Position numbers and translations under genes: made by a program. This document shows positions 561 to 9,393 of a stretch of DNA of 64,000 nucleotides, piece after piece. Where the stretch lies: the sequence record OP172792. One strand, written 5' to 3'. The stretch comes from Escherichia phage ECO340P2. Within the stretch, counting starts at the first letter, position 1, and each line of letters opens with the position of its first letter. Under the pieces are notes generated by a model. That model saw nothing but the letters and a program-made list of their open reading frames with translations, ran no database searches and was not told where the DNA came from.

Positions 561-1046
561 ATGCTTAAAATGAAAACAGGTAATCTTATTGATGCCGCTA
601 AAGCAGGGGAAGTAACGGTTATTGCTCATTGTTGTAATTGTATGTGTAACATGGGGGCAGGTATTGCCCCACAAATAAAATATGCGTTTCCATATGCATA
701 CGAAGCAGATTTAGCTACAGGAGCAGGAAACCAGAAAAAGCTTGGTTCTTTTAGTTTAGGAGAACCAGAAGATTATCCTAATCCTATGGTATACAACCTT
801 TATGGACAATATCGTTATGGATATAATAGTAAAGGTCGTCAATTAGATTATGATGCACTGTATGATGCTCTTGCAGCTATGGCAATGGACTTACACAATT
901 ACGATAAAGGAGATCAACCAGCACATAAGATTGGTCTACCTATGATAGGTGCAGGTCATGCTGGAGGTAATTGGGCTATCATTGAAGTCATGATCAAAGA
1001 AACTTTAGTAAAAGCTGGTCACGATGTGACTATTTATAAACTTTAA
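561..1046 (+). CDS. Macro-domain protein, TARG1/OARD1/DarG-like (ADP-ribose removing)
   Basis: Motif VIAHCCNCMCNMGAGIA matches the TARG1-type macro signature (AHC..C.MGAGIA). Start moved to ATG 561 (AAGGA 7 nt upstream) instead of track start 486, which overlaps the previous gene. Confidence 0.6.
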   Translation: MLKMKTGNLIDAAKAGEVTVIAHCCNCMCNMGAGIAPQIKYAFPYAYEADLATGAGNQKKLGSFSLGEPEDYPNPMVYNLYGQYRYGYNSKGRQLDYDALYDALAAMAMDLHNYDKGDQPAHKIGLPMIGAGHAGGNWAIIEVMIKETLVKAGHDVTIYKL

Positions 1047-4204: not shown

Positions 4205-4795
4205 ATGTATACCGAGAGAGACTTGCAACTCTTGTGGTGGGAAGTGATGCAGGAAATAAAAGAAGATTTTCCTGTTTACTACAACATGTTACGTGAAGCA
4301 GGATATAAAGCTTGCGTTAGAAACAAAGTGAATAACTCTTTTGGTTGGTGCAACTACCGAGATAAAATTGTTGTTGTAAATTGGCACTTGCATAAGAACT
4401 CTACAAGAGATATGATCGTGGATACAATGAAGCATGAAATTGCTCATGCTATTGATGGTTGTATGGGTAAGTTTAGTAGGCACGGTGCTCATTGGCAAAA
4501 ACTGGCAGCAGAATTAGGGGCTAATCCTAAAGCCACTTCCAAAGAGCCGTTGAACCACGAATATAAATATGTTCTTGTTCTGGTAGATAGGTTTGCGACA
4601 AGGTGTGTTAGAGGTTATAATCGTAAACCTAATCGCATGTACCCAGGTAAGCAACCTAATATGTGGTTGAAATCAGATAAAGAAGGGACCGAAGGAAAAT
4701 TATGGTTGTATAAATGGGACGATTGGGTTAAAGTAGCTAAAGAGTACGGTGTTTCACCATATATAAGAGATGCAGAAGAGGAGAATGAAGAATGA
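4205..4795 (+). CDS. HExxH zinc-metallopeptidase-like protein (SprT/Wss1-like)
   Basis: Motif MKHEIAHAIDGCMGKFSRHGAHW gives HExxH plus a downstream His; family assignment tentative. Confidence 0.5.
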   Translation: MYTERDLQLLWWEVMQEIKEDFPVYYNMLREAGYKACVRNKVNNSFGWCNYRDKIVVVNWHLHKNSTRDMIVDTMKHEIAHAIDGCMGKFSRHGAHWQKLAAELGANPKATSKEPLNHEYKYVLVLVDRFATRCVRGYNRKPNRMYPGKQPNMWLKSDKEGTEGKLWLYKWDDWVKVAKEYGVSPYIRDAEEENEE

Positions 4796-5904
4796 CAAGT
4801 CCATTTTTAAAAGCAGCTACTGGTGGTCAGAAGAAGTCTGAAATGAGTGTATTCGCTGCAACAACAGATGCAAGTAAATCTGTATTCGCGCCAAGCGTGT
4901 TAGATGCCAGTCCTGTTTATGCACCAGCCGCACCGCAAGAAGTCCCAGTTTTGCCTTCTATGACCCGACAAGAGATCGAAGAGATTGGGGCAGAGGCAGG
5001 AACAACCTTGCGTTCCTTGAATGCCGAGGTATTAAAACATCAACGTAGTAATCAAGGCGATCAGATGAGTGAACGACTCACAGCTTTGATTAAACAGGCA
5101 AAACAACTTGATCCAAACTCTATTAAACAAAGCAAGGGTATTACTAAACTCATTAAAAAGGTCATGGGTATGAAAGAAGACCTGTTCGGGGAGTTTGATA
5201 ATGTTAATAACCGTATTGAAGAGTTAGTAAAGAACCTTCAAATGGATATTCGCAAAGAAGAAGATTCCTTAGTATATCTTGAAAAACTACATCAAGCTAT
5301 TGGACAATATGCTGCAAGTTTGAACCGAGATATGCAGCTTCTAACAGCAACCTATGAAAAAGAAGAGCAAGCTTTGGCTGCTCTTCCAGAAGATGCAGTA
5401 GAACAGCGACAAGTGATCCGAGATACTTTGGATCTTCTGGAGATTCGTATTGCGGATTTAAAAGCATTGCGCCTACTGTGTGTCCAAATGGGACCACGTG
5501 TACAAGGTATGCAAAAAGTTTCTGCAAGCTTAATGCGATCTGCGCGTAACATAGTAAATAATGTTATCCCTGCTTACTCTGCTAACTTCTCAATGTATAT
5601 TGAGAGCTTACGTCAAATGAAAGCCGCAGAAACACAGAATAACGTTCTTGATGAATTTAACCTGGCAATTAAATTAGGTAGTGATTTGGCTACACAAAAT
5701 CAGATTGAAGCCGCAGCATTGGCTAACCGTCAAGTGTTAGATATTGATACTCTGCGACACGATCAGGAAAACTTAGTTAAAATGCTGGAAGAAACAAATC
5801 GCATCAATACAGAAGCCCGTGCTGCTCGTGTTGATTATATTAATGAAGTTCAATCTCTGGAAGACGGGATGGTAGCTGCTGTAAAACGAGGACTTGGTAA
5901 ATGA
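4792..5904 (+). CDS. TelA-like (toxic anion resistance family) coiled-coil protein, tentative
   Basis: About 370 aa, disordered N-terminus then long coiled-coil-prone helices; size, composition and position between terC and terD fit TelA/KlaA. No diagnostic motif verified. Confidence 0.4.
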   Translation: MTSPFLKAATGGQKKSEMSVFAATTDASKSVFAPSVLDASPVYAPAAPQEVPVLPSMTRQEIEEIGAEAGTTLRSLNAEVLKHQRSNQGDQMSERLTALIKQAKQLDPNSIKQSKGITKLIKKVMGMKEDLFGEFDNVNNRIEELVKNLQMDIRKEEDSLVYLEKLHQAIGQYAASLNRDMQLLTATYEKEEQALAALPEDAVEQRQVIRDTLDLLEIRIADLKALRLLCVQMGPRVQGMQKVSASLMRSARNIVNNVIPAYSANFSMYIESLRQMKAAETQNNVLDEFNLAIKLGSDLATQNQIEAAALANRQVLDIDTLRHDQENLVKMLEETNRINTEARAARVDYINEVQSLEDGMVAAVKRGLGK

Positions 5905-7485: not shown

Positions 7486-8280
7486 ATGTCCGAGAAAATC
7501 AGCCTGAAAAAACGTCAAGAAAACCTTGCTTTCTCTCTGAAAAAGAATAAGAACCTGAATGAAGGTAAGATTGTTCTTCGTGTAGCATGTGCTCTAGATA
7601 TTTCTGGTAGTATGCATGGTCTATATGCTCGTGGAGTAGTGAGTGATTTTGTAGGTAAACTGCTCCCTTTTGGTATGCTGTTCGACGATAATGAACAAAT
7701 TGATATGTGGGCCTTCAATACAAGTTCTCAAGAGCTTACTCCAGCAACAGCAGACGTTTACGATGATTATGTTGGTAAATGTATGCGTAATGTTCGTATC
7801 GGAGGTGGAACAAATTACGCCCCTGTAATGGCAGATATCTACGATGAGTATTTTGGCACTGTTACCAAATATATTACCACTAAACAAGTGGTACAAGAGG
7901 AGGCTCCAAAGAAAGGCTTCTTTAATCGTCTGCTTGGTAAAACTGAAACAGTATCTGTAGAGCGTGAAAAGGTTGTAGCTGTATCTGAACCAGGTGCTGA
8001 CGTTACCCCTGGTGTTGTATTCTTCCAGACGGATGGTGAGAATGGTGATCCTAGTGCTGTTCGTCGTCTTATTGAAGAGAATAAGAATAAACCTATTTAT
8101 TGGTTCATGGTTGGCGTCGGTAATGAGAAGTTTGGCTTCCTGAAAGAACTGGCAAATGCTTATGATAATGTTGGTTTTATTGGCATTAAAGATTTAGACT
8201 TGACAGATTCAGAGCTTTATGACAAACTCTTATCTGAAGAGTTCGGAGAGTGGGTTGTTAAAGTAGGTGCTAAAAAATGA
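7486..8280 (+). CDS. vWA (MIDAS) protein with TerD-like N-terminal head; TerF/TerY-like
   Basis: N-terminus MSEKISLKK...FSLKK mimics the TerD start; LRVACALDISGSM is a vWA MIDAS DxSxS motif. Confidence 0.65.
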   Translation: MSEKISLKKRQENLAFSLKKNKNLNEGKIVLRVACALDISGSMHGLYARGVVSDFVGKLLPFGMLFDDNEQIDMWAFNTSSQELTPATADVYDDYVGKCMRNVRIGGGTNYAPVMADIYDEYFGTVTKYITTKQVVQEEAPKKGFFNRLLGKTETVSVEREKVVAVSEPGADVTPGVVFFQTDGENGDPSAVRRLIEENKNKPIYWFMVGVGNEKFGFLKELANAYDNVGFIGIKDLDLTDSELYDKLLSEEFGEWVVKVGAKK

Positions 8281-8790: not shown

Positions 8791-9393
8791 ATGACTGATA
8801 AAATTTCCCTGAAAAAAGGCTCTAGCGAAAAAATTTCCCTGAAGAAAGTTGCTCCGGCTCTGAAAGAACTGCGCCTGGAATTCTCTTGGAAATCTGATTC
8901 TAAACTGGATCTGGATGTAAGTGCACTGGTTTGTCGTCATAATGCCGCTGGCAATCCTGAAATGCTGTCTGCACGTCATCTGGTTTGCTATGCTAACAAG
9001 TTTGATCCTGAACGTTCTACCTTTGCTGGTGACGATGTTCGTGATGGGACTGGCAGCATGGAGCAGATTGATATTACTCTGGCTAAAATCTCTCCCGATG
9101 CACAAGAGATTGCCTTTGTTCTGACCATTGATGATGATACAGGTCTGAAACGTTTTGGTCATGCTTCTGAAGGTATGCTTAAAATCTTCGACTCCGAGTG
9201 TAATGTGGAAATTCTGGATTTTGACTTCCTGGCTCCTGAAGTAGCTGGCAACACAATCTGCCACGTGGCTTCCTTGGTTCGTGAAGATGGTGAATGGAAG
9301 CTGAAAGCATATGGTGTAGGTAAAGCTGGTCTGGATATTTGTGATGTGGTGATGGCCTTCGGTGGTAAAAAAGAATGGTATGAATGTCCATAA
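8791..9393 (+). CDS. terD: TerD-family protein
   Basis: Collinear with remembered enterobacterial TerD: ISLKKGSSEKISLKK, LDLDVSALVC, GDDVRDGTGS..IDITL, FVLTIDD and GEWKLKAYGVGKAG all match. Confidence 0.9.
   Translation: MTDKISLKKGSSEKISLKKVAPALKELRLEFSWKSDSKLDLDVSALVCRHNAAGNPEMLSARHLVCYANKFDPERSTFAGDDVRDGTGSMEQIDITLAKISPDAQEIAFVLTIDDDTGLKRFGHASEGMLKIFDSECNVEILDFDFLAPEVAGNTICHVASLVREDGEWKLKAYGVGKAGLDICDVVMAFGGKKEWYECP

Follow-up and report, generated by a model that had tools for sequence, protein, structure and literature searches.

The open reading frame (ORF) described here lies at positions 561 to 1,046 of a 64,000-nucleotide stretch of the Escherichia phage ECO340P2 genome (sequence record OP172792), i.e., the window. 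Its product is a stand-alone, orphan macrodomain of the ALC1/TARG1 class with a glutamine (Gln-type) active site, and is a homolog of phage T4 Tk.4 (AdfM) and of SCO6735. The protein is probably an anti-DarT ADP-ribosyl glycohydrolase of the AdfM type, i.e., a stand-alone, orphan antitoxin-like enzyme. The fold, class and active-site pattern of the protein were established in this analysis, as were its homology with Tk.4 and SCO6735 and the purifying selection and orphan status of the gene.

561-1046, + strand: macrodomain gene, 161 amino acids plus stop (ATG at 561, TAA at 1044-1046)

Fold and family assignment

In phmmer search against the PDB, the protein matched SCO6735 (E 3e-12), BT1257 (4e-8), T. 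aquaticus DarG (4e-5) and TARG1 (2e-3). The match to Pfam Macro PF01661 (E 3e-4) scored 21.1 bits against a gathering cut-off of 22 bits, and many close relatives scored above the cut-off. The DarG macro part was the best match in the defence library, and the DarG models of PADLOC (1e-9) and NCBIfam (1e-8) matched in their macro part only. The protein was also matched to phrog_335 (E 5e-53). Judged from these matches, homology to macrodomains is far above chance.

The AlphaFold2 model, built with 46 homologs (pLDDT 93.3, pTM 0.90), predicts a three-layer α/β/α macro fold, whose nearest structures are in the ALC1-like (TARG1/DarG/Poa1p/SCO6735) class. The Foldseek hits 1 to 20 of the model were TARG1, BT1257, Poa1p, DarG and SCO6735, with E values of 1e-10 to 1e-7. 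The best was TARG1 (8.5e-11, TM score 0.76-0.87), and DarG was found at 1.5e-9. The original prediction, which was made from the DNA letters, had proposed a TARG1/DarG-like macrodomain, and this class is upheld by phmmer, the DarG models, phrog_335 and AlphaFold2/Foldseek. It had also written the TARG1-type signature as AHC..C.MGAGIA. The resemblance is real, but the spacing was slightly off. The motif region reads IAHCCNCMCNMGAGIA in this protein and LAHCISEDCRMGAGIA in TARG1, and the string in common is AHC-x4-C-x-MGAGIA.

A true DarG, i.e., the antitoxin of a toxin-antitoxin module, was ruled out, as both the C-terminal DarT-binding domain and the toxin gene are absent. The protein has 161 amino acids vs approximately 330 in DarG, and it matches DarG positions 1-144 of 329 (PADLOC) and 2-147 of 338 (NCBIfam). 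The NCBIfam DarG score was 34.9, against a cut-off of 250 bits. No darT toxin gene was found among the neighbors, i.e., the PRTase_3 gene, a 73-amino-acid membrane protein, a 77-amino-acid ORF and TerC. The PADLOC scan of the upstream HAD and PRTase_3 genes gave no match; the small downstream ORFs were outside that scan. The Hymenobacter homolog is likewise an orphan gene, with no DarT found nearby.

Homologs were found by tblastn in 2831 phage records of many families with unlike neighborhoods; tk.4 of T4-like phages is among them. It can therefore be argued that the function of the protein is self-contained. Some homologs are longer. As annotated, the Justusliebigvirus proteins have approximately 90 extra N-terminal amino acids, i.e., 245 in total (phage JohannJBalmer/Bas62, L004 4716-5450), and Felix-O1-like homologs have a C-terminal extension, i.e., 261 amino acids (Felixounavirus, L008 3995-4780). 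Several BFVD matches were 218-260 amino acids long.

Active site

The active-site residues were located by alignment with SCO6735 and other reference proteins.

627-668, + strand: His23-x-x-Asn26 and the first phosphate-binding loop MGAGIA (residues 31-36), aligned with SCO6735
807-809, + strand: Gln83 codon, in the column of the catalytic Lys of TARG1 (K84), DarG (K80) and PhiKZ gp104
948-974, + strand: second loop GAGHAGGNW (residues 130-138), with Ala134 in the TARG1 Asp125 column

His23 and Asn26 correspond to His24 and Asn27 of SCO6735, and Cys24 stands in the place of SCO6735 Val25. Gln83 aligns with the essential Gln85 of SCO6735 and with the Gln of T4 Tk.4. Both glycine-rich loops for ADP-ribose/phosphate binding, i.e., MGAGIA (31-36) and GAGHAGG (130-136), align with all reference proteins. 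In 46 family members, H23, N26, G32, G34, Q83 and G130 were invariant, and the G-x-G-x-AGG-x-W loop (G130-W138) was invariant or nearly so. By alignment, the pattern is that of the SCO6735/BT1257 Gln-type, i.e., His-x-x-Asn, Gln for Lys, and G-x-G-x-AGG-x-W.

Catalytic Lys and Asp positions had been expected in the original prediction, and their absence on alignment was named as grounds for rejecting it. The two residues are not there: Gln83 replaces TARG1 K84 and DarG K80, and Ala134 replaces TARG1 D125. Catalysis of the TARG1 Lys/Asp type is ruled out by these residues. However, the absence is not a valid ground for rejection, because active enzymes, i.e., SCO6735 and T4 Tk.4, carry this Gln too.

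Coding status and allele replacement

549-553, + strand: Shine-Dalgarno-like AAGGA, 7 nucleotides 5' of ATG 561, read directly from the sequence
600-1000, no strand: divergence island, 68-86% nucleotide identity to phage DE16 vs 95-100% in the flanks

The ATG at 561 is also the start annotated in related phage records. The ratio of nonsynonymous to synonymous substitution rates (dN/dS), calculated against the diverged allele of phage DE16, was 0.10. Because of this low value, the ORF is regarded as a real coding gene kept by purifying selection. The gene is packed tightly after the series nrdD, nrdG, two hypothetical genes, HAD and PRTase, and no intergenic promoter was found there. The early timing put forward in the original prediction is putative; the promoter/terminator scan run on this point gave 49 sites, where 38.7 ± 6.7 were expected, i.e., no enrichment over shuffles. 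In public records, the gene is labeled as "hypothetical protein" or "phosphatase". The latter label goes back to the A1pp motif once annotated in T4 Tk.4, and no assay is behind it.

The synonymous rate (dS) was 1.08 in the macro gene, i.e., 7-13 times the values of 0.08-0.15 in the flanking genes of the PRTase, the membrane protein and TerC. Given this excess and the dN/dS of 0.10, diversifying selection was ruled out as an explanation of the local divergence. The high dS and low dN/dS therefore point to recombination, and the island indicates allele replacement in which the function was kept. The window allele was present at 99% identity or more in eight phage records, and the other allele (80-90%) in 59. 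Such an allele swap fits an accessory or counter-defence gene which is exchanged between phages.

Proposed function and alternative readings

In the proposed mechanism, the DarT2 toxin of a DarTG2-carrying host would use NAD+ to ADP-ribosylate the single-stranded phage DNA at its thymidines, and phage replication would be blocked by the modification. The macrodomain would bind the ADP-ribose (ADPr) via its MGAGIA and GAGHAGGNW loops. The N-glycosidic bond between thymine and ribose would be hydrolysed by the lysine-independent, Gln-dependent mechanism of SCO6735, with His23, Asn26, Gln83 and a water positioned by the backbone. The products would be free ADPr and restored DNA, and replication would be allowed. 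A counter-defence role against DNA ADP-ribosylation by DarT had already been suggested in the original prediction. It gained support from the kinship with SCO6735 and the homology with T4 Tk.4 (BLASTP, 39% identity over 124 amino acids, E 2e-21), which belongs to phrog_335 too. Like AdfM, the gene is an orphan in a virulent phage genome. The anti-DarT principle is already known, i.e., from genetics for T4 Tk.4 and from biochemistry for PhiKZ gp104.

Several points weigh against this function. We infer the substrate, i.e., thymidine-ADPr in DNA, and the escape from DarTG2 by transfer from homologs of 25-39% identity. The lysines K34 and K89, by which SCO6735 binds DNA, are replaced by Ala33 and Gly87; K34 is also missing in T4 Tk.4. 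His133 (codon 957-959), which adjoins the active site, replaces a Leu present in over 90% of the family. This His of the GAGHAGGNW loop is common to both Phapecoctavirus alleles and directly precedes Ala134, i.e., the residue in the TARG1 Asp125 column. The gene's place after HAD-PRTase_3 in a Ter-like cluster is kept in Stephanstirmvirinae, which allows a pathway-linked role. Finally, Glu-linked protein ADPr (PMC9411070) and uracil-ADPr in RNA (PMC13036486) are substrates of SCO6735-type enzymes as well, and because of these activities the in vivo substrate could differ. They are also in favor of a broader or different de-ADP-ribosylase, which would act on protein, RNA or soluble ADPr derivatives (e.g., O-acetyl-ADPr, ADPr immune signals) and not on DarT2-modified DNA specifically. 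The source of the marks would then be another ADP-ribosyltransferase defence or toxin of the host, or a transferase encoded by the phage. Enzymes of the TARG1 class are promiscuous, relatives of the gene are placed among NAD+/ADPr genes, e.g., SIR2, NUDIX, NAMPT and Prs, and breakdown of soluble ADPr derivatives by phage Macro domains was proposed by Iyer et al. (PMC7824862). However, the sole genetic phenotype of a Gln-type phage homolog is specific to DarTG2, with a single gene found in the T4 screen. Around the macro gene, no ADP-ribosyltransferase gene was identified, and SCO6735 is inactive on ADPr at the 2'-OH and 5'-phosphate of RNA (PMC11833690). The broader enzyme is considered unlikely.

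The macro protein could otherwise belong, as third enzyme with HAD and PRTase_3, to a pathway linked with the Ter-like cluster (TerC, TelA, vWA-TerF, TerD). Examples are a Poa1p-like phosphatase or ribosyl-processing of a phosphoribosylated "nucleoside-like" metabolite of the PRTase, or NAD+/ADPr salvage. The order nrdDG...HAD-PRTase_3-macro-(small membrane protein)-TerC is common to Phapecoctavirus and Justusliebigvirus, even though their macro proteins are only 43% identical. Poa1p is among the best structural matches, the Ter system was proposed to include PRTase and HAD enzymes of signal biosynthesis (PMC7824862), and the macro gene of other phages adjoins different, NAMPT-type PRTases. 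The public "phosphatase" label would also agree, but it is the inherited A1pp annotation mentioned above. Against such coupling, no macro gene was found within 5 kb of HAD-PRTase_3 in Xanthomonas phage XaC1, Rhizobium phage TM21B and Brevundimonas phage Gurke. Conversely, the macro gene occurs with no PRTase_3 nearby in T4, Felix-O1-like phages and the nearest relatives outside the subfamily, i.e., rV5-like phages and a 153-kb TerC-bearing contig. PRTase_3/HAD genes were near the macro gene in only five of the 80 closest macro-bearing viral loci from IMG/VR, many of which are related, so that counts over them are non-independent. The macro allele was also swapped independently of its flanks. 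Because the linkage is lineage-specific, i.e., limited to Stephanstirmvirinae, coupling to PRTase_3/HAD was demoted to an alternative of low probability. It is very improbable that the Stephanstirmvirinae macrodomain and the translationally coupled HAD-PRTase_3 form a three-enzyme salvage route for ADPr/NAD+ or a Ter signal, beyond DarT2 erasure. Such a route may be an analog of the Prs/NAMPT genes of NAD+ reconstitution pathways (NARP1/NARP2) which flank macro homologs in Pakpunavirus, Thalassavirus and jumbo phages. It may recycle the ADPr released from DNA, or process the "nucleoside-like" Ter signal. A non-catalytic protein, which would sequester ADPr ligands or block the transferase as a stoichiometric DarT inhibitor with no hydrolysis, is very unlikely. 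In its favor, the canonical Lys/Asp dyad is absent, and DarT is still inhibited in vitro through interaction with the dead Q85A mutant of SCO6735 (PMC9411070). However, the family shows no variation at the alignable catalytic residues of SCO6735, i.e., His, Asn, Gln and both Gly loops, and the DarT-binding domain of DarG is absent.

NAD+/ADP-ribose genes around relatives

Among the 80 loci, NAMPT-type genes were found in 33, Prs-like genes in 29, NUDIX in 26, SIR2 in 26, and NADAR directly upstream of the macro gene in 20. There are at least three gene orders, i.e., NUDIX-NAMPT-NADAR-macro in jumbo phages, Prs-NAMPT-x-macro in Pakpunavirus, and Prs-macro-NAPRT in Thalassavirus. In the 20 NADAR-macro loci (L036, L040, L048-L052, L055, L058, L060, L065, L066, L071, L075, L077, L078, L082 and L084-L086), the distance from the NADAR end to the macro start was between a few and approximately 700 nucleotides, and the macro gene was at approximately position 8001 in most. 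NUDIX, NAMPT, HAD_SAK_2, SIR2 and Prs-like genes were within 8 kb in these loci.

The anti-DarTG1 factor AdfN has the NADAR fold (PMC11825919), and the NADAR-macro pairing fits an anti-DarT role for this reason. From their gene content, these loci seem to combine two eraser folds, one for guanine-ADPr and one for thymine-ADPr. The recurrent theme around relatives is a NAD+/ADP-ribose counter-defence island and not a Ter PRTase module. In the window, no homologs of NADAR, NAMPT, Prs or NadM were found by tblastn.

Prs-like and NAMPT/NAPRT-like genes, i.e., the gene pair of NARP1, adjoin the macro gene in Pseudomonas phage K5 (L006 969-4480) and Vibrio phage Pontus (L007 3129-6192). The ADPr released by the macrodomain could be a substrate which is recycled by this pathway. 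A Sir2-like NAD-dependent protein is encoded elsewhere in the related Phapecoctavirus ESCO13 genome (L017 19719-20850).

Genome neighborhood

Over its first 6 kb, the window was 95-97% identical to approximately 60 Phapecoctavirus genomes, with vB_EcoM_01 as the best match. These are phAPEC8-like E. coli myoviruses of approximately 150 kb in the subfamily Stephanstirmvirinae. In complete relatives, the gene order on the same strand is nrdD, nrdG, two hypothetical genes, HAD hydrolase, PRTase_3, macro, the 73-amino-acid membrane protein and TerC. Genes of a SprT-like protein, TelA, a vWA-TerF-like protein and TerD follow farther downstream.

2-547, + strand: PRTase_3 (ComF-like phosphoribosyltransferase, PF15610), C-terminal 181 amino acids, E 5e-28 (full-length relative 2e-41)

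The window opens inside this PRTase gene, and its partner HAD gene is just outside. The PRTase-like neighbor named in the original prediction is confirmed as PF15610, directly upstream of the macro gene, and its protein is 99.5% identical to that of DE16. No relatives of the PRTase_3 protein were found by PDB sequence search. The HAD gene shares 8 nucleotides with the PRTase_3 gene (L001 3071-4547), and the two occur together in 156 phage records, i.e., in Stephanstirmvirinae, Xanthomonas phage XaC1, Rhizobium Cuauhnahuacvirus, and Brevundimonas/Caulobacter jumbo phages. The Rhizobium Cuauhnahuacvirus pair adjoins a NadM-like NMNAT/Nudix gene.

The Ter-like set on the + strand of the window consists of TerC (1605-2579), SprT-like metallopeptidase (4205-4795), TelA (4792-5904, overlapping with the preceding gene), vWA-TerF-like (7486-8280) and TerD (8791-9393). 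It resembles the abbreviated jumbo-phage Ter systems of Iyer et al. The 77-amino-acid ORF (1292-1525, + strand) is placed in an insertion of approximately 245 bp which is absent from DE16, otherwise 95-100% identical. No Pfam and PHROG matches were found for this ORF. Right after it, at 1527-1590, a promoter-like TTGACA-16-TAAGAT and a GC hairpin are located ahead of TerC.

Significance

If the proposed function is true, phAPEC8-like phages, which are used and proposed for treatment of Klebsiella and of avian and urinary pathogenic E. coli, carry a ready answer to DarTG2. The Gln-type (SCO6735/T4 Tk.4) branch of AdfM would also reach another large phage subfamily. Homologs in approximately 2800 sequenced phages suggest that selection by thymidine ADP-ribosylation is pervasive. 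For annotation, the gene can be relabeled as putative anti-DarT2 macrodomain instead of "hypothetical protein" or "phosphatase". The allele swapping and the NADAR/NARP neighborhoods of relatives point to "NAD+/ADP-ribose counter-defence islands". No new question is opened by the gene itself, as the principle was already demonstrated for T4 and PhiKZ.

Comparison with known systems

Human TARG1/OARD1 (PDB 4J5S) has the AHC-x4-C-x-MGAGIA string in common with this protein at 22-24% identity, but its dyad Lys84/Asp125 corresponds to Gln83/Ala134 here. TARG1 likewise reverses thymidine-ADPr.

The PhiKZ gp104 AdfM (Cell Rep 2026, PMC13309987) and the DarG2 macrodomain (PDB 5M31/5M3E/5M3I) have the same fold, class and proposed job. 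They are Lys-type, with an FPTK motif, in contrast to the Gln-type here, and the identity with gp104 is 19% (E 0.002). gp104 erases DarT2 marks in vitro, neutralises DarT2 toxicity and protects chimalliviruses (PMC13309987). AdfN, i.e., the NADAR orphan antitoxins of phages against DarTG1 (PMC11825919), shares the concept of a phage-borne, orphan antitoxin-like ADP-ribosyl hydrolase. However, its fold is unrelated and its specificity is for guanine-ADPr.

By sequence, the best-matching solved structures are SCO6735 (Streptomyces coelicolor, PDB 5E3B) and BT1257 (Bacteroides, PDB 2FG1). As in the ECO340P2 protein, these are Gln-type ALC1-like macrodomains, and orphans with no adjacent DarT. They differ as cellular proteins of approximately 25-32% identity, with a loop of other length between β-strands, and Val25, Lys34 and Lys89 of SCO6735 are Cys24, Ala33 and Gly87 here. 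SCO6735 efficiently hydrolyses DarT-made thymidine-ADPr on single-stranded DNA and rescues E. coli and Streptomyces from DarT, whereas the Q85A and N27S mutants are inactive (Hlousek-Kasun et al., PMC9411070). A water-mediated, lysine-independent mechanism was proposed for it (PMC9411070).

T4 Tk.4 is, like the ECO340P2 protein, a stand-alone macrodomain of approximately 155-160 amino acids in a lytic E. coli myovirus, with no toxin partner. The motifs AH-x-CNC, MG-x-G and NLY-x-Q, i.e., with Gln and not Lys, are common to both. The second loop is GAGIGKGNW in Tk.4 and GAGHAGGNW here, and the neighborhood is the vs/tk region in T4 vs HAD-PRTase_3/TerC here. The role of Tk.4 was established genetically, whereas that of the ECO340P2 protein is putative. 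By transposon sequencing (HIDEN-SEQ), tk.4 was the single T4 gene that turned conditionally essential on a DarTG2 host. Its clean knock-out sensitises T4 to DarTG2, and the gene was named adfM, i.e., anti-DarT factor Macrodomain (bioRxiv 10.1101/2025.11.20.689424). T4 with neither adfA nor adfN is still resistant to DarTG2 (PMC11825919), and the tk.4 finding explains this resistance (bioRxiv 10.1101/2025.11.20.689424).

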